From the IMG/VR virus record IMGVR_UViG_2585427755_000006: a DNA stretch of 10,517 nucleotides; one strand, given 5' to 3'. The translations under genes were made by a program, and so were the position numbers. The DNA comes from a virus (Duplodnaviria; Heunggongvirae; Uroviricota; Caudoviricetes). This document shows, in pieces, positions 1 through 10,517 of the stretch (position 1 is the stretch's first letter; each line of letters starts with the position of its first letter). The notes under the pieces are model-generated. The model searched no databases. It worked only from the letters and a program-made list of their open reading frames with translations, and was not told the DNA's origin.

Positions 1-91
1 TAGACTGGCCCCCTGAATCTCCAGACAACCAATATCACTTAAATAAGTGATAGTCTTAATACTAGTTTTTAGACTAGTCATTGGAGAGCAG

Positions 92-457
92 ATGATTGAT
101 GTCTTAGGACCGGAGAAACGCAGACGGCGTACTACACAGGAAAAGATCGCTATTGTTCAGCAGAGTTTTGAACCGGGAATGACGGTCTCCCTTGTTGCCC
201 GGCAACACGGTGTGGCAGCCAGCCAGTTATTTCTCTGGCGCAAGCAATACCAGGAGGGAAGTCTTACTGCTGTGGCCGCAGGAGAGCAGGTCGTTCCTGC
301 CTCTGAACTTGCTGCTGCCATGAAGCAGATTAAAGAACTCCAGCGCCTGCTCGGCAAAAAAACGATGGAAAATGAACTCCTTAAAGAAGCCGTTGAATAC
401 GGGCGTGCAAAAAAGTGGATAGCGCACGCGCCCTTATTGCCCGGGGATGGGGAGTAA
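92..457 (+). CDS. insC: IS2 transposase OrfA (InsC), 121 aa, HTH DNA-binding
   Basis: ATG at 92 after GGAGAG RBS. Translation [40 protein letters not shown]... matches recalled InsC. The track ORF from 47 is an upstream GTG extension. Confidence 0.9.
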
Positions 458-1320
458 GCTTAGTCAGCCGTTGTCTCCGGGTGTCGCGTGCGCAGTTGCA
501 CGTAATTCTCAGACGAACCGATGACTGGAAAGATGGTCGCCGCAGCCGTCACTCAGATGATACGGATGTGCTTCTCCGTATACACCATGTTATCGGAGAG
601 CTGCCCACGTATGGTTATCGTCGGGTATGGGCGCTGCTTCGCAGACAGGCCGAACTTGATGGTATGCCTGCGATCAATGCCAAACGTGTTTACCGGATCA
701 TGCGCCAGAATGCGCTGTTGCTTGAGCGAAAAACCGCTGTACCGCCATCGAAACGGGCACATACTGGCAAAGTGGCCGTGAAAGAAAGCAATCAACGATG
801 GTGCTCTGACGGGTTCGAGTTCCGCTGTGATAACGGAGAAAAACTGCGAGTCACGTTCGCGCTGGACTGCTGTGACCGTGAGGCACTGCACTGGGCAGTC
901 ACTACGGGCGGCTTCGACAGTGAAACAGTACAGGACGTAATGCTGGGAGCGGTGGAACGCCGCTTCGGCAACGAGCTTCCGGCGTCTCCAGTAGAGTGGC
1001 TGACGGATAATGGTTCATGCTACCGGGCTAATGAAACACGGCAGTTTGCCCGGATGTTGGGGCTTGAACCGAAGAACACGGCGGTGCGGAGTCCGGAGAG
1101 TAACGGCATAGCAGAGAGCTTCGTGAAAACGATAAAGCGTGACTACATCAGTATCATGCCTAAACCAGACGGGTTAACGGCAGCAAAGAACCTTGCAGAG
1201 GCGTTCGAGCATTATAACGAATGGCATCCGCATAGTGCACTGGGTTATCGCTCGCCACGGGAATATCTGCGGCAGCAGGCCAGTAATGGGTTAAGTGATA
1301 ACAGGTGTCTGGAAATATAG
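415..1320 (+). CDS. insD: IS2 transposase OrfB (InsD), 301 aa, DDE catalytic domain; expressed as InsCD fusion by -1 frameshift
   Basis: Translation [23 protein letters not shown]...NRCLEI matches recalled InsD. Overlaps insC in the -1 frame with slippery CAAAAAAG at 408-415. Confidence 0.9.
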
Positions 1321-2693: not shown

Positions 2694-3148
2694 TACGCCT
2701 CCTGCTTGTCGCGCAGCAGCTGGAACTCGCAGCTCTGCGGAATAGTCAGGTGGCAGCCAATATTCATCGCCCAGGCTTCAACCTTACACAGGAAGACATA
2801 CATCTCTCCGGTATCGAGATCGGAGGTATGACGTAATGACTGAATGGTGGTGATTTCACCGGTTACGACATCAACCAGTTCTTTGGTTTCATAACCGAGA
2901 TAAGTGTGTTTGAGAGCATCTTTTACCCAAGCTGGAGTGGCGAACGTTTTACCCCTGCTGATGAGGTATTCACTGATTTCGCTGTACCACATGTGGCTGA
3001 GTGCATTCTGGGAAAGACTGCGTCTCTCGCGCCATGGTTTAAGCACCATGCGAAAGCATTTGCCGTCCTCCAGATAAGGCTGGATCTGCCGACCGATAGA
3101 GGTGAAGTTACCGCGATGCAGTTTGATGCCATCTTGTGGGAAGTTCAC
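2693..3148 (-). CDS. ybcN: YbcN (151 aa), lambdoid nin-region protein
   Basis: Translation [35 protein letters not shown]... matches recalled YbcN. GTG start at 3146-3148 behind a GGAGGTGA Shine-Dalgarno. Confidence 0.85.
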
Positions 3149-3246
3149 GCTTCACCTCCGCAGAGATCAAACGCTGGATGCAAGATATCGCAGGTGCATT
3201 TCTGCATCTGTGAAGGGAGAAGATAGTTTGGATTGTATGTGCGCAT
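3145..3246 (-). CDS. ylcH: Small protein YlcH-like (33 aa)
   Basis: Hand translation [33 protein letters not shown]. Stop overlaps ybcN GTG (GTGA). GGGGA RBS 5 nt upstream of ATG at 3244-3246. Matches the 33-aa ylcH slot upstream of ybcN in K-12. Confidence 0.5.
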
Positions 3247-3342
3247 AAACGTCCCCGTTTAGCGCAGAAGTCACCGGAGTTGTTCAAGCTCCAATGGCAT
3301 GATTATGGCTGGTTGATTATGGGAAATCAAATGTGCTGAAAA

Positions 3343-3849
3343 TTAGTCTGCCAAGTCTTCCTCAGTCACAACTGGGTAATTCCAAATATCAAAAAAAGCT
3401 ATAGCCTCCTGCCATTTGTTCCATAAATTATCAAGTACTTGTGTAGGTTCCGTACTTTTAAAAACAGAATCAGCCGCATCACCGTTATGAACTTCCTCGT
3501 ACAGTTCCATTATTAGCAGATTAACAAAGTACTGTTTCAACATTAATGCCTGATTACCTTCTTTCTGCTGGCTATCCTGCTTGATGATCTCCATCGCCCG
3601 TACCAGGCACCTGATGATATCCGCTGCATCATTAACGCTCCATTCAGATCCGCGCTTATCTGTAGCTGATGTATTGGCTCTCTCAGCGCAAGCCTTTAAA
3701 GACTCATAAAGGTAAACTCTATTTTGTAGCTGCAGCGCTTTTTTTGACGTGTACCAACTTGCAAGCGCCGACCCCGCTGCGGCTAATGTGCCAAACGCAG
3801 AAATGCCTGCTGCTATTGCACTTAAGTCGGCACTGTCAAAGTTCCACAT
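3343..3849 (-). CDS. Hypothetical 168-aa protein with a single predicted N-terminal transmembrane helix (AIAAGISAFGTLAAAGSALASWY) and an acidic C-terminal domain; no recognised family
   Basis: Clean ORF with ATG at 3847-3849 and AAGGTG RBS. Looks lower in GC than the flanking nin genes (by eye). Sits where K-12 DLP12 has ybcL/ybcM. Confidence 0.7.
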   Translation of the reverse strand: MWNFDSADLSAIAAGISAFGTLAAAGSALASWYTSKKALQLQNRVYLYESLKACAERANTSATDKRGSEWSVNDAADIIRCLVRAMEIIKQDSQQKEGNQALMLKQYFVNLLIMELYEEVHNGDAADSVFKSTEPTQVLDNLWNKWQEAIAFFDIWNYPVVTEEDLAD

Positions 3850-3881
3850 TATCGTTACACCTTATATAAATACCCCTCAGT

Positions 3882-3910
3882 AATATCCAATAAGGTATGT
3901 GAACAATCAA
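3882..3910 (-). promoter_or_regulatory. Candidate sigma70 promoter for the 168-aa gene (-35 TTGATT, 17-bp spacer, -10 GATATT)
   Basis: Minus-strand TTGATTGTTCACATACCTTATTGGATATT about 35 bp upstream of the ATG, directly downstream of the terminator at 4026-4068. Confidence 0.3.
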
Positions 3911-4025
3911 TATAATTTTATCCGTATCGGCACATAGCGATTTGAATGCTACTGGTAATGGTGTCTTTTAGATTATTTCGTCCAGTTTACAGCACCCGTA
4001 TTTTATGAAATGGACTCGCACATTA

Positions 4026-4068
4026 CCCCAAAAAATGCCAGCACTTCCGTCATCGTAGAATGCTGGCA
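4026..4068 (-). terminator. Rho-independent terminator after the 107-aa gene
   Basis: Inverted repeat TGCCAGCA (4036-4043) / TGCTGGCA (4061-4068) followed on the minus strand by TTTTTT (plus-strand A-run 4030-4035), about 20 bp past the stop at 4088. Confidence 0.5.
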
Positions 4069-4087
4069 GTATTTCTAACTAGTGACT

Positions 4088-4411
4088 TTATTGCAACAGA
4101 TTCTGACGGAAATATGGTAACACTCGACTCCACTTATCATCCAGCCACGGCTGGAATTTTACATGTGCCGTTTCTCTGGCGAGGATTGCTCGCGCTCTGG
4201 TGAGTATCTGGGGATATTCTTGCTCGATGGAAGTGAAGCGACCAGCTTCACGATGCTCCGCAACCTGAAGAAGGGGAGTAACGTTCTGGCAGGCGGTTAA
4301 CATCGCATCCCCTGCTCGCCATAACCAGGCGAGTGTGCAAAGTTCGTTATCAGTGAATTGTTTTGTGATTGGGAATTGTTGAACTGCTAGAACGAGAACG
4401 CCAGCATCCAT
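4088..4411 (-). CDS. Hypothetical 107-aa soluble protein; no recognised family
   Basis: ORF MDAGVLVLAVQQFPITKQFTDNELCTLAWLWRAGD... with ATG at 4409-4411 and GGGA RBS. Flanked by its own candidate extended -10 promoter and its own terminator. Confidence 0.65.
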   Translation of the reverse strand: MDAGVLVLAVQQFPITKQFTDNELCTLAWLWRAGDAMLTACQNVTPLLQVAEHREAGRFTSIEQEYPQILTRARAILARETAHVKFQPWLDDKWSRVLPYFRQNLLQ

Positions 4412-4488
4412 TGGCAGTCCCTATAGTAAAACCATAGCTCAGGACGCTTCGTTCAGGATAGATAATTTTATTGTACTTACCTAACTTT

Positions 4489-4500
4489 CTTACTATAGCA
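4489..4500 (-). promoter_or_regulatory. Candidate extended -10 promoter (TGcTATAGT) for the 107-aa gene
   Basis: Minus-strand TGCTATAGT (plus 4492-4500) about 80 bp upstream of the ATG. The -35 is weak, as is common for extended -10 promoters. Confidence 0.3.
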
Positions 4501-4522
4501 CGGTTGAAAAAGTGATTATTAC

Positions 4523-6049
4523 TCAAAAATAAACCTCACCATCAACCATATATTTGAGAGTACTTATCGCCTGCTGGGCGGATATTGTTTTCATTAAAGG
4601 ATAGTGTTTAAAAACAATGCCATTCATAAAATAGATATCACAGGTTTTATTATCTGTATTGATTATGATTTTTTCGAATGTTTTATAGGCAAGTGTACGA
4701 CATAGCTCTCGCCCATTTTTACTGGTTAAGTCAATAGCATGAAAATCACCAAGTGAACTCACCGCTTTACTCTTCAAAGTTTTTAATGATACCGAAGCCC
4801 TTCGTAATTCCTTATCTAATACTCTGATTTTTTCTGCTATAGCGGTAACTTCAGGCGCAACAGATAATGCAGCAATTAAATTATTAATTTTCATCTGGAG
4901 CTCAATAATTTTCAACTCTAAAGTTTCATTAGCATCTTTCTTGTTTTCAACTGGTTGGATTTTGCTACAATTAAAAAGCAACTCATTAATGATATTATAA
5001 TCAACCAAATCTCTCTTTATTGATGGCCTGTCACATCGATGCAGTCTTCTCATCGGACAAACATAATAGCCATGCAAACTTCCAGATACCGCATGAATAA
5101 TCATGGTATTACCACAAGCCTCGCACTTCATAACTGTTCGAAGTAGATTTATCAACATAGGATTTTTGCTACTATTGCTAATACCAAAAGGTGCCAACCG
5201 AATTTCCTGCACAGCGTAAAACAAATCATCTGATATGACTCTGGGATAATAGCCAGCGATTTCACTTATTCCTTTACCTCTTGCACGATATGAAGGTACG
5301 CATATACCTATCAGAGCTTTATTCGCTAATAATTTTTCAATTACAGAAGGCCCCCATGCACTTTCTTTTCCTGAGAAATTTTTTACAGCATGATCATTTA
5401 AATACTTGGCTATTGCATTCAATGAGCGCCTTTCCATCCTGAGTTTAAAAATTAGCTCAATAGTTTTCACCCTGTCGGGGTCTGGAACAAAAGCCGTTCT
5501 TTTGTCATCTAAGGATAGCCATCTAGGACAAGACGCCGTCATAATCGTACCTGATTCCAGTGCATCCTGCCGTTTTTTCTTCCATGATAATTTAACCCGA
5601 CTTGACTTTATCTCGCTTTCTTCATTTGCCCTTTGTGCTATAAGTATGGCTTTTATTAATGAATATGGCTCATTCAAAGAGTCAATATTATAGACTGTAT
5701 TGTCGCAAAGAGTTATAACATCAATACCGTGATTCAAAATCAATTTCAGACGTTCAATCGCTTCACCGACTTTTTCTCTTGAAAGCCTGTCCAGACTTTC
5801 AACTAACAATGTAGTTCCTGGCAATATATAACCATGCTCTATAGCATCTAAAAATTCCGAAAAAGCTCCTGATTGTGCATGCTTTCCTTTGAATGCACTT
5901 AATCCTAAATCTTCATATGTTATGGTATCAAGATAATAATCACTATTTACCTTTAACCATTCAGCAATAAGTCTTCTCTGTCGGTTTAATGAGTCGCCAG
6001 ACATCTGACCTGGTGATGAAAATCGCATATATGCTATGGCTTTTTTCAT
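4523..6049 (-). CDS. ybcK: Large serine recombinase YbcK (508 aa)
   Basis: N-terminal resolvase-type catalytic motif AYMRFSSPGQ, C-terminal cysteine cluster CEACGNTMIIH...YYVCPMRRLHRCD, and a match to recalled K-12 YbcK. AGGTG RBS. AT-rich. Confidence 0.9.
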   Translation of the reverse strand: MKKAIAYMRFSSPGQMSGDSLNRQRRLIAEWLKVNSDYYLDTITYEDLGLSAFKGKHAQSGAFSEFLDAIEHGYILPGTTLLVESLDRLSREKVGEAIERLKLILNHGIDVITLCDNTVYNIDSLNEPYSLIKAILIAQRANEESEIKSSRVKLSWKKKRQDALESGTIMTASCPRWLSLDDKRTAFVPDPDRVKTIELIFKLRMERRSLNAIAKYLNDHAVKNFSGKESAWGPSVIEKLLANKALIGICVPSYRARGKGISEIAGYYPRVISDDLFYAVQEIRLAPFGISNSSKNPMLINLLRTVMKCEACGNTMIIHAVSGSLHGYYVCPMRRLHRCDRPSIKRDLVDYNIINELLFNCSKIQPVENKKDANETLELKIIELQMKINNLIAALSVAPEVTAIAEKIRVLDKELRRASVSLKTLKSKAVSSLGDFHAIDLTSKNGRELCRTLAYKTFEKIIINTDNKTCDIYFMNGIVFKHYPLMKTISAQQAISTLKYMVDGEVYF

Positions 6050-8017: not shown

Positions 8018-8316
8018 GCGAAATTAACTCTCAGGCACTGCGTGAAGCGGCAGAGCAGGCAATGCATGACGACTGGGGATTTGACGCAGACCTTTTCCAT
8101 GAATTGGTAACACCATCGATTGTGCTGGAACTGCTGGATGAGCGGGAAAGAAACCAGCAATACATCAAACGCCGCGACCAGGAGAACGAGGAAATTGCGC
8201 TAACGGTAGGAAAGCTGCGCGTTGAGCTGGAAGCAGCAAAATCAAAACTCAACGAGCAGCGTGAATATTACGAAGGTGTTATCTCGGATGGAAGTAAGCG
8301 TATTGCTGAACTGTAG
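8014..8316 (+). CDS. Ead/Ea22-like protein (100 aa, coiled-coil C-terminus)
   Basis: GTG start overlapping the upstream stop (GTGA). Translation MSEINSQALREAAEQAMHDDWGFDADLFHELVTPSIVLELLDERERNQQYIKRRDQENEE... matches a recalled Ea22-like family. Confidence 0.55.
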   Translation: MSEINSQALREAAEQAMHDDWGFDADLFHELVTPSIVLELLDERERNQQYIKRRDQENEEIALTVGKLRVELEAAKSKLNEQREYYEGVISDGSKRIAEL

Positions 8317-8566
8317 GCCTAGGTTGAATGTACAAGATTTGCATACGTAAGAGCAAAAGACAAGGGAGAATTGATCAGAGTTATTACCTGCCAACCAACG
8401 GGATATTACGCTTACGTACCATGTAACTAGGAATCCTTGAAGTGGCAGCCTAACTGTGGATACACTGAAATGGCGATTTGGTAACATGTTTCGCACAAGG
8501 CTGTTACTACGCTTAGAGATAATCAGTCATGATTAAATGCTTTGTAAAAAGTAAAAGGAAATTACA

Positions 8567-9181
8567 ATGAAAAAATCAACACTAATTTTAGGGCTTACGT
8601 TAATTGTCTCATCTCAAATACCATCGGCAATGGCAAAAAATGAATCAAAACTTTGGGTTGTTGTTGATCGAACGGAAAGACATACCTGCCCTTCAAGTAA
8701 ATGTGGAGTGGCTGGGAAACTATTTTTCAGGGAAGGCGTAGATTTTCTAGAAAAAAAAGGTGAATGGGTTCGTATAACTGAGCCATATTCAGCCTCATGT
8801 GTGGGAGGGGAAAGCGAATATATTAAAGAAGGTAATAAATCCTGCACAAGAAAAAACGGAATCGTTAATGGCAAGTTTTCAGAATGGGTTAAACTTAGTG
8901 ATCTTAGCAGTGAAAGGCCATCAGATCCTGCTGAAAATGCGAGCAGAAATGATACCTTAATCAAAGGATCTGATGACTACCGTATATACAAAAAAGAGTT
9001 TTCTTCGGCAGCTAGGAAGTTAATAAGTGAAGGTGTCTGCACGGAGAGCGATTTTAAGGAAGTTGGAGGGTGGATGGCATCAAGCAATAAGGGTGAAAAC
9101 ATCTATTTCACATATTGCGGAGGAATGACGTTGTCGAACAGAATATATCTAGACGTTAAAAGTGGAAAGACTTTTAGATAA
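8567..9181 (+). CDS. Secreted/periplasmic hypothetical protein (204 aa) with cleavable signal peptide and an SH3b-like N-terminal region
   Basis: Signal peptide MKKSTLILGLTLIVSSQIPSAMA with AxA cleavage motif. The stretch LWVVVDRTERHTCPSSKCGVAGKLFFREGVDFLEKKGEWVRI resembles a bacterial SH3 fold. Six cysteines. AAGGAAA RBS. Lies in the AT-rich island. Confidence 0.7.
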   Translation: MKKSTLILGLTLIVSSQIPSAMAKNESKLWVVVDRTERHTCPSSKCGVAGKLFFREGVDFLEKKGEWVRITEPYSASCVGGESEYIKEGNKSCTRKNGIVNGKFSEWVKLSDLSSERPSDPAENASRNDTLIKGSDDYRIYKKEFSSAARKLISEGVCTESDFKEVGGWMASSNKGENIYFTYCGGMTLSNRIYLDVKSGKTFR

Positions 9182-9252
9182 TATGATATTACCAATGACA
9201 GCATTAATTTAATGCCTCCATAGAATTATCTCTAGGAAGTAAGTATAAGAAA

Positions 9253-9289
9253 AGTCCGCACAATGAGCTGCTGCGGGCTTTGTGTTATT
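9253..9289 (+). terminator. Candidate rho-independent terminator after the secreted-protein gene
   Basis: AGTCCGCA (9253-9260) / TGCGGGCT (9272-9279) stem with one G-U pair and an 11-nt loop, followed by TTGTGTTATT. Confidence 0.4.
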
Positions 9290-9474
9290 CGCCATATTTT
9301 ATGAAGCAAATACGACACTATAGATAATTAAGCGTTACTGGTTGTCGATTCCTCACTCATTCCTGCTGATGGCTGTCTTCTTGTATGTGTCATTGAAGGG
9401 TAATATCGCGTAAAAAGATACCGGAAGTATCCGCGCCGCTATGATTGTCTTTCTCCTGATGCAGGAAAAGCAGA

Positions 9475-9813
9475 ATGACTAAATCAGCAGCAGAGCGCAA
9501 AGCCGATCAGAGAGCCAAGCAAGCATCATCCGGTATGCGTAAGCTGGAGCTTGTACTTGATGCTCAGGAAATTGAAATGCTGGAGCGTAACTGAGCCACG
9601 CGCCGCTTCAGGCGTGCGCCTTACGAGTTTGGTGAGTACATAGCGTTACTGAGCCGCCAGGATGATGCACGTGTGCGCTGGCGTATAAAATCGATTAGCA
9701 GAAAACGTTGCCGTAAGTGCGGCGAGAGAGTTCCTGTTAATTCATGCCCGTGTAATGGTGACTCACAATACTGGGTGACCAAAGGCTGGCACGAAACAAA
9801 ATTAATGATATAA
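9475..9813 (+). pseudogene. 112-codon reading frame interrupted by one in-frame TGA (9592-9594): 39-aa N-terminal part plus 72-aa C-terminal part with a zinc-ribbon motif
   Basis: ATG at 9475 gives MTKSAAERKADQRAKQASSGMRKLELVLDAQEIEMLERN, then TGA, then the same frame continues ATRRFRRAPYEFGEYIALLSRQDDARVRWRIKSISRKRCRKCGERVPVNSCPCNGDSQYWVTKGWHETKLMI*. No ATG in the second part; an internal GTG at 9673 is the only alternative start. Confidence 0.45.
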
Positions 9814-9841
9814 ATCTCTGTGACATGTCACGGAGGCGGCA

Positions 9842-10270
9842 ATGAAATTAGACCAGCAATATCTAAAAGATCTACTTATCGCATTCGAAAAAACTTATGG
9901 CCCTGACACGATGCTTAGTGAACTAGAGGATAATGGCTTTAATAGATATGACCAAAATTTTATTTTCCATATGCGATTATTATGTGACTACGAATTAATA
10001 GTTAGGGTTGATGGAAAACCTGGGTTCGGTCATATAATGTCCAACGAGTTAGGGGAAGGTGTTGAATATAGTTGGCTCGAAGTACCACTGAGGTTGACAG
10101 CAAGAGGGCATGATTTTATTGCTGACTTACGTCAAAAGGAGGTCTGGCAAGCTATAAAAACAAACTTTAAGGATGAGGGAATTGGTACTCTTATGAGTGT
10201 TTCAAAATCACTAGCAAAAGGCTTTGCAAGAAAAAAAATAAAAGATATTACAGGAATAGATATTGAATAA
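9842..10270 (+). CDS. Hypothetical 142-aa protein, prophage cargo, no confirmed family
   Basis: ATG at 9842 with GGAGG RBS (cacGGAGGcggcaATG). Clean AT-rich ORF ending 36 bp before the IS911-like terminus. Confidence 0.7.
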   Translation: MKLDQQYLKDLLIAFEKTYGPDTMLSELEDNGFNRYDQNFIFHMRLLCDYELIVRVDGKPGFGHIMSNELGEGVEYSWLEVPLRLTARGHDFIADLRQKEVWQAIKTNFKDEGIGTLMSVSKSLAKGFARKKIKDITGIDIE

Positions 10271-10306
10271 TTCTTAGCATAAAGCAACTACTGCCTTTGG
10301 TGAAAA

Positions 10307-10517
10307 TGAAGTGGTTTACTGAATTTGGCCACCTGAACAGAGGTGATATGCTCACCTCAGAACAACACAGGTGCCATAATGAAAAAAAGAAATTTCAGCG
10401 CAGAGTTTAAACGCGAATCCGCTCAACTGGTCGTTGACCAGAATTACACCGTGGCAGATGCAGCCAGCGCTATGGATGTCGGCCTTTCCACAATGACGCG
10501 ATGGGTGAAACAATTAC
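10307..10517 (+). mobile_element. Left end of an IS3-family insertion sequence closely related to IS911 (partial, runs off the window)
   Basis: Terminus TGAAGTGGTTTACTGAATTTGGCCACC resembles the IS911 left inverted repeat TGAAGTGGTCAACAAAAACTGGCCACC, followed by an IS911-type orfA. Confidence 0.8.
10379..10517 (+). CDS. IS3-family transposase OrfA (IS911 InsN-like), N-terminal 46 codons only
   Basis: Translation [46 protein letters not shown] matches recalled IS911 OrfA apart from a few substitutions. AGGTG RBS. Confidence 0.85.

Follow-up and report, generated by a model that had tools for sequence, protein, structure and literature searches.

A mobile accessory gene of temperate phages in a decayed DLP12-like prophage: a DUF2513-family winged-helix protein with a possible role in phage-host conflict

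Genomic context of the locus

The window, i.e. the whole 10,517-nucleotide stretch of viral DNA analysed here, corresponds to a decayed DLP12-like lambdoid prophage encoding rusA, ybcO, ninE, ybcN, ybcK, emrE and ren. Next come, on the + strand, a TraR/DksA gene and a truncated ea22-like gene. Beyond these, it carries a gene for a 204-aa secreted protein, a zinc-ribbon gene broken by a nonsense codon, an intact gene for a protein of the DUF2513 family and the left end of an insertion sequence (Table 1).

Table 1. Features of the DUF2513 locus, with their positions in the window
Feature	Position	Strand	Basis or remark
Gene for 204-aa secreted protein	8567-9181	+	Signal-peptide/lipoprotein-like N-terminus; phrog_8310 (E 7e-135); weak SH3_3 match
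Zinc-ribbon gene, 112 codons (phrog_536)	9475-9813	+	Ends 28 bp before the DUF2513 ATG; pseudogene here
Shine-Dalgarno motif GGAGG	9832-9836	+	5 nt 5' of the ATG; read from sequence
CDS of DUF2513-family protein, 142 aa	9842-10270	+	ATG at 9842, TAA at 10268-10270; intact ORF
Winged helix-turn-helix domain, residues 1-85	9842-10096	+	Predicted structure
Family signature T86-x-x-G89-H90-x-F92 and three helices, residues 86-137	10097-10252	+	Model, conservation and charge
IS3-family element, left end	10307-10517	+	IS911-like; ISEc52-like in one plasmid record

By megablast, 130 complete E. coli genomes contain positions 8400-10307 with 99-100% identity. The intact gene order, ea22'-204 aa-112-codon frame-DUF2513-55 aa-xis-int, was read from loci L001, L002 and L156 and from phage Chlobot, a viable phage, and the same ea22'-to-int order was also present on a prophage-like plasmid record. 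A sequence-only reading of the window had placed the 142-aa protein, as cargo, between ea22 and xis/int; the intact relatives, Chlobot included, carry a clean accessory gene in exactly that slot. In L001 the integrase is followed by ybhC, which we take to be the lambda attachment site side. In the same record, a DLP12-like set (emrE, ybcK, rusA, quuD, a porin gene and essD) at 11357-13845 ends with a 356-aa integrase beside ybhC and not beside argU, where the DLP12 prophage of K-12 sits.

Identity to the intact relative stops at window position 10307, where the IS3-family inverted repeat TGAAGTGG... starts. The identical IS sequence is labelled as an ISEc52-like IS3-family element in one plasmid record; its orfA starts at 10379 with a reading frame that extends past the window end, and this OrfA start resembles IS911. 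The insertion point lies 36 bp past the DUF2513 stop, just 5' of a terminator hairpin seen in intact relatives (in L001 a terminator-like hairpin and T-run at 10916-10935, 45 bp past the stop). The insertion has therefore removed here the terminator of the DUF2513 gene as well as the 55-aa ORF, xis and int, a cut that had been suspected from the IS911-like boundary. On the other side, a remnant of replication gene P adjoins a DUF1317 remnant in L001, so that the N/pL/exo-bet-gam segment is missing in this lineage, and we infer that the natural early promoter pL of the DUF2513 gene was deleted in this prophage. At the left end of the window (47-1320), an IS2-like element whose ORFs are presumably of InsC/InsD type appears to replace the 3' end of the antiterminator gene quuD, a - strand ORF at 1245-1673 reading into the IS.

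An intact gene of the DUF2513 family

The ORF had been read as clean, well initiated and located in an AT-rich island, and both points stand: the 142-codon gene is intact behind its closely spaced GGAGG, and its G+C content is 0.354 (35%), with local values of 0.37 versus 0.46-0.50 in nearby sequence. The G+C content at the three codon positions (0.48/0.30/0.28) follows a coding-type pattern. ORFs of at least 142 aa arose in 39 of 2000 shuffles of positions 8251-10307 (~ 2%), so that length is weak evidence and homology decides instead. The protein has 113 relatives at 47-99% identity, almost all of them 130-145 aa long, dN reaches 0.16-0.20 between genera with dS saturated, and the E. coli alleles are intact in 14 cases out of 15. 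On these comparisons, the family is under purifying selection over long distances, and positions 9842-10270 are a real gene. A chance ORF or a dead relic without function could be proposed from the 2% of shuffles that reach such a length, from the decay of the prophage and from the probable loss of the natural promoter. Against it stand the strong ribosome-binding site, the codon-position G+C pattern, hundreds of intact homologues, a dN far below dS between genera and the presence of the gene in viable Chlobot; this explanation is effectively refuted for the gene family, and its probability is close to negligible. Expression of the copy in the window is a separate matter and appears doubtful in this decayed prophage, since a consensus scan of the + strand from 8200 to 10517 returned no sigma-70-like promoter.

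The sequence-only reading had found no family that it could confirm for this protein, and had suggested profile and structure-based searches as the way to check it. This part has to be corrected. The protein matches Pfam PF10711 (DUF2513) with 41.9 bits, above the gathering cut-off of 29.6 (E 1.3e-10, profile positions 1-99 of 100), as well as phrog_585, labelled 'unknown function' (E 6.7e-33, residues 1-135 on profile positions 1-127 of 128), and its structural model is of the PadR/MarR-like winged-helix type, with no solved relative detected. PF10711 was likewise matched by 113 of 117 diverse family members, and the query shares with PF10711/phrog_585 the signature motifs (FxFH..L.D and PLRLTxxGHxF), a length of ~ 135 aa and a stand-alone architecture, nothing material being different; it is a typical DUF2513/phrog_585 member. 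The ORF is also already known: its DNA is 100% identical to CDSs named DUF2513 domain-containing protein in RefSeq (WP_001598311.1 in L001), so that the novelty of the gene itself is low.

The description of the protein as uncharacterised remains valid with respect to function. No meaningful match was obtained in NCBIfam for the DUF2513 ORF, and PADLOC-DB 2.0 returned no family at E <= 1 for this ORF, for the 204-aa neighbour or for the zinc-ribbon fragment. Neither the protein itself nor a 30-sequence profile recovered a solved relative in a PDB sequence search, and a literature search on DUF2513/phrog_585, YjcQ and lambdoid defence hotspots retrieved no paper about function. Membership of the large regulator families was not recovered by profile either: PadR (PF03551) gave no match for the query at E <= 1 nor for any of the 117 relatives at E <= 0.05, and no Pfam MarR match occurred among these relatives. 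Their weak cross-matches to other winged-helix families concerned YjcQ, the wHTH-PRTase-associated family and HTH_12.

Predicted fold and conservation across the family

An AlphaFold2 model built from a 30-sequence alignment (pLDDT 93.3, pTM 0.83) follows the winged-helix topology H1-S1-H2-H3-S2-wing-S3, with helices H1 (residues 5-16), H2 (25-30) and H3 (38-49) and four wing strands (53-55, 64-69, 72-78 and 83-85). Three further helices (87-97, 99-108 and 114-137) form the C-terminal part, whose tail is basic and amphipathic (pI 9.5). With confidence, the protein can thus be modelled as an N-terminal PadR/MarR-like winged helix with a three-helix C-terminal extension. Foldseek against PDB returned nothing at E <= 0.001, and all close structural neighbours are DNA-binding regulators. 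When compared with PadR regulators, especially those of the short type with a single C-terminal helix (PDB 5h20, 7wjp, 5x11 and 5z7b), the predicted arrangement of an N-terminal winged helix followed by C-terminal helices is compatible with the PadR architecture; it differs by having three C-terminal helices instead of one helix or a domain, and by an acidic winged helix. A BFVD fold search recovered uncharacterised proteins only, with a 'YjcQ protein' ranked fifth. YjcQ (PF09639), a protein of the Bacillus SKIN prophage, is likewise small, phage-borne and of winged-helix type; it gave weak cross-matches in 6 of the 117 relatives, one of which (P0127) passed the threshold, and no match for the query itself. 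This resemblance is uninformative on function, since YjcQ is likewise without a known one.

Conserved positions among 123 family representatives are M1, D4, Y7, L12, F42, H43, L47, D49, G63, R84 (99%), L85, T86, G89, H90 and F92, and the query has H43, D49, R84, T86, G89, H90 and F92, each conserved at 87-99% in this set. Conservation thus outlines an invariant recognition helix bearing aromatic, His and Asp residues together with a PadR-like 'RLTxxGHxF' element. The most variable part of the protein, which also carries indels, is the wing tip (~ residues 64-80, about 10031-10081), and the two E. coli allele groups differ at 7 positions, 4 of them within residues 68-79. The family is acidic (median pI 5.4, 94% of its members below pI 7), as is the winged-helix domain of the query (pI 4.6, net charge -7), and the 123 representatives share no family-wide conserved basic residue in H3. 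An acidic domain, an H3 helix devoid of conserved basic residues and a variable wing would be unusual for a sequence-specific DNA binder. Such features fit the recognition of a single conserved ligand or partner at least as well as they fit operator-specific repressors, nucleic-acid binding being compatible with them.

These observations bear directly on a conventional reading, in which the protein would be a PadR/MarR-type factor acting as a dimeric repressor or activator at a specific operator to control genes of the phage or the host, and unrelated to defence or counter-defence. DNA binding is the usual activity of small phage winged-helix proteins, which speaks for such a factor, as do the nature of the structural neighbours, the PadR-like xRLTxxGHxF motif at the wing/helix junction and the predicted C-terminal helices, which could mediate dimerisation. 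On the other hand, the domain is acidic, and its recognition helix, instead of being variable and basic, stays invariant and hydrophobic throughout the 1459 family clusters; the gene has neither its own promoter nor an operator-like intergenic region, the upstream gap being 28 bp, no target gene travels along with it, and Pfam assigns it to neither PadR nor MarR. We regard this reading as unlikely.

Distribution and genomic slots of DUF2513 genes

The DUF2513 gene was present in 183 of 5426 complete E. coli genomes (3.4%). At a broader scale, a profile search at E <= 0.001 gathered 1459 family clusters at 50% identity, nearly all of them 117-150 aa long and single-domain. The genomic surroundings were compared at 64 loci from species-representative genomes and in 80 of the 159 matching viral contigs, in addition to annotated records, and the flanking genes, labelled with a reference set, defined three recurrent slots.

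The first slot, at the distal end of the early-left (pL) operon beside xis/int, was occupied in the E. coli group, in Serratia and in L133/L139, the Serratia loci having an Rv2179c-like exonuclease gene downstream of DUF2513. The second lies in the nin region, just before DUF1367-ybcO-Q (L013 of Yersinia, and also L126, L135, L138, L150 and L119-L123). Dam- and Dcm-type methyltransferase genes stand directly 5' of DUF2513 in L013, and likewise, by ORF pattern, in related contigs. Within the nin region of the viral contig L120, a 568-aa AIPR-domain abortive-infection protein (PF10592, E 1e-42; 3082-4788) is encoded immediately 5' of DUF2513, and a same-length ORF, probably also an AIPR protein, holds this position in L123. 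From these loci, the nin slot ahead of DUF1367 appears to be a hotspot of defence and anti-restriction cargo. The third slot is located between the lysis genes and the small terminase gene (Klebsiella phage ST846-OXA48phi9.2, L015, L018 and L127). A function as packaging helper, suggested by the terS-adjacent copies, is unlikely given the pL and nin copies.

The genes surrounding DUF2513 are as diverse as its slots. In an all-against-all comparison of the four neighbours on either side at 57 genome loci, no family recurred beyond 3 loci. The 148 neighbours within two positions, scanned with Pfam, PHROG and PADLOC, showed no dominant family; they spread over 77 Pfam families, the commonest being small terminase subunits, lysis proteins and DUF1367, and the PADLOC matches were scattered (Type I R-M, ShosA/PsyrA and CapP-like), each in 1-2 proteins. 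No constant partner emerged among the neighbours of 150 DUF2513 loci. Three different slots and no constant partner argue for a mobile accessory gene, not for a structural or core regulatory one, and we consider the identity, the fold and the accessory status of the gene, taken jointly, as highly probable.

The gene resembles a moron in its deviant base composition and in its presence or absence among related phages. It also has its own terminator in intact relatives, from which the IS separates it in the window; its own promoter, the remaining moron trait, was not found in the consensus scan of the + strand mentioned above (8200-10517). With the nonessential genes of the lambda ea/b region (ea8.5, ea22), it shares the slot from ea22 to xis but no sequence relation.

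A facultative zinc-ribbon neighbour

Had positions 8567-10270 formed one block, as the sequence-only reading supposed, their genes would be expected to stay together in the neighbourhoods of homologues, where it had proposed to look for recurring partners. Only the zinc-ribbon gene recurs, and does so facultatively. A targeted tblastn over 150 DUF2513 loci located it directly upstream, at a fixed spacer of 28-32 bp, in 43 of 44 E. coli-type loci; for DUF2513 identities of 60-90% this was so in 14 of 32 loci, and below 60% in 4 of 74. The pair occurs in both pL-distal and nin contexts, which suggests that the two genes can move together. In L015 they are separated by 3.7 kb, and among 58 phage records with the zinc-ribbon gene (epsilon15, phiV10, SPN1S, ZF40 and others), Chlobot is the only one that also has a close DUF2513 gene. 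On these counts, the zinc-ribbon gene is the only recurring, and a facultative, neighbour of DUF2513.

In the window, this gene, whose phrog_536 family is labelled 'transcriptional regulator', is interrupted at 9592-9594, where a TGA replaces a Cys codon that is conserved between E. coli, Yersinia and other genera. The same TGA is present, on different backgrounds, in about half of the E. coli alleles, each with an open frame downstream; L156 and phage Chlobot carry an intact copy. Selenocysteine was considered at this codon, but the 75 nt downstream fold no better than shuffles (z -0.32), so that a SECIS element is unlikely and the TGA is read as a nonsense mutation.

The co-occurrence of the two genes raises the idea of a two-gene cassette, for example a regulator with its partner or a toxin-antitoxin-like pair, that would be non-functional here because of the nonsense codon in the 112-aa zinc-ribbon partner. 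Their adjacency at a 28-32 bp spacer extends from 43 of 44 E. coli-type loci to ~ 15 loci of other genera, where identity has fallen to 47-72% for both proteins, and it persists across slots, pL-distal and nin. Yet the partner is absent at 18 of 32 loci in the 60-90% identity range and at 70 of 74 loci below 60%, the genes lie far apart in L015, a single one of the 58 zinc-ribbon phage records has DUF2513, and DUF2513 is still intact in E. coli although about half of the zinc-ribbon alleles carry the nonsense codon. A cassette of this kind appears quite improbable.

The 204-aa gene is followed by a terminator-like hairpin (~ 9251-9281, dG -15.9, z -2.0) with a T-rich tail and accompanies DUF2513 in 39 of 44 close loci, all in the E. 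coli lineage, and in 0 of 106 more distant ones. Its inclusion in the same unit as DUF2513 was rejected on this lineage-limited co-occurrence. With the 204-aa gene independent and the zinc-ribbon gene facultative and nonsense-broken here, the supposed block dissolves into a patchwork. At ~ 9380-9470, between these two genes, a remnant annotated as truncated 'DNA repair protein' or 'UmuD-like protein' (also at 5494-5571 in L156 and 6494-6811 in L007) likewise makes the region a patchwork of gene fragments. The 55-aa ORF located between DUF2513 and xis (10954-11121 in L001), which the window lacks owing to the IS, is provided with a terminator-like hairpin of its own (11111-11130) and has no Pfam match; it stands beside DUF2513 in 44 of 44 E. 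coli-type loci and in a single more distant one (L145, 87% identity). In one Serratia prophage lineage (L009/L010, 5064-5981), a gene for a 305-aa protein unmatched in Pfam stops 19 bp short of the DUF2513 start, and its product could be a lineage-specific partner.

Fusions to effector-like domains of antiphage defence

Among the best 150 family representatives, about 10 are longer than 190 aa, and their additional parts match defence modules. In P0141, the whole 135-aa module is joined to a CAP12/Pycsar-type TIR domain (PF10137, E 7.7e-21; PADLOC PycTIR, CBASS TIR effector and PDC-S35), and in P0247 a DUF2513 relative is joined to a ThsB-like TIR (E 1.8e-35; PDC-S66 at 1.8e-57). P0208 matches PDC-S60 and, weakly, DUF4062, while P0125, P0215 and P0206 share a C-terminal module with a weak AbiTi match (5e-7 to 2.6e-4) and a PDC-M14B match. 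The combination of DUF2513 with PF10137 was found in at least seven clusters at 90% identity, which come from independent sources, and the TIR-bearing relatives comprise P0141, P0289-P0293, P0297 and P0247. Since the same PF10137 TIR is found behind many other N-terminal heads, DUF2513 therefore takes the place of one interchangeable head of single-protein TIR effectors; in these TIR effectors (PF10137 and ThsB-like; PDC-S35, S60 and S66), as in the AbiTi-like proteins, DUF2513 relatives supply the N-terminal head. These effector fusions of DUF2513 are newly noted in the present analysis.

All fused forms seen belonged to metagenomic clusters of other taxa, and the best 120 proteins of a second profile search contained none, all being single-domain or devoid of a Pfam domain. 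Given their rarity and metagenomic origin, the fusions tie the family to immunity through guilt by domain association only. The protein in the window has no TIR domain and ends after its helical tail; with neither an effector domain nor a PADLOC match, it is not classifiable as a defence system. The C-terminal module with weak AbiTi and PDC-M14B matches, shared by P0125, P0215, P0206 and also P0170, spans ~ 110 residues (...TNIG.AINSPVQQ(A/G)GAH..., a coiled region and a hydrophobic tail GAIGSLIATAxQPTVWxW); it belongs to no Pfam family and is possibly a membrane-acting effector tail.

The fusions also invite a counter-defence reading, in which an effector-less copy of the sensor head would serve the phage as a decoy or dominant-negative partner of DUF2513-effector proteins, or as a sponge for their activating ligand. 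The use of the same module at the head of TIR and AbiTi-like effectors, the small, acidic and phage-borne nature of the protein, the early expression that the pL and nin slots would give and the hypervariable wing, as an arms race predicts, are all in line with this. Free-standing copies nevertheless vastly outnumber the fused ones, which are metagenomic and come from other taxa, and some copies lie upstream of terS, where expression would be late. Such a decoy or sponge function seems highly improbable.

Proposed role

Taken together, we propose that the free-standing DUF2513 winged-helix protein is the product of a mobile, dispensable accessory gene of temperate phages that acts in phage-host conflict, an overall reading to which we would give an even chance. 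The gene would be a moron-like accessory, and its copy in the window a passenger in a decayed DLP12-like prophage, which relatives carry at the lambda attachment site. At the mechanistic level, this small and probably dimeric winged-helix protein may bind nucleic acid or one conserved ligand, with a binding core formed by the H3/S3/H4 signature (F42, H43, D49, R84, T86, G89 and H90) and a specificity set by the hypervariable wing. It would thereby modulate phage-host or phage-phage conflict, the same module serving in rare relatives as the N-terminal head of TIR- and AbiTi-like domains. This binder mechanism and its action in conflict, which we infer from conservation, model, fusions and the AIPR or methyltransferase genes next to some nin-region copies, are put forward tentatively, as plausible but somewhat more doubtful than not.

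A more specific and distinctly unlikely extension would make DUF2513 a hitherto unrecognised sensor head of a modular abortive-infection family. A single conserved trigger, in the form of a nucleic-acid feature or of a small nucleotide-like ligand, would switch on interchangeable TIR, DUF4062-like or AbiTi-like effectors, and the effector-less phage copies, with the one in the window among them, would sequester this trigger and so dampen host immunity, or act in trans as a prophage exclusion factor, possibly with the zinc-ribbon protein.

The DUF2513 gene of this window is by itself an ordinary object, i.e. a member of a catalogued DUF family in a well-known lambdoid accessory slot with an IS adjoining. 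Its value as a lead comes from the large family behind it (1459 clusters at 50% identity), now with a predicted PadR-like fold, a mobility between slots and occasional effector fusions, and a positive result on function would give a role to a widespread phage gene family. Such a functional test would be cheap, close copies being available in the viable E. coli phage Chlobot as well as in 183 complete E. coli genomes.
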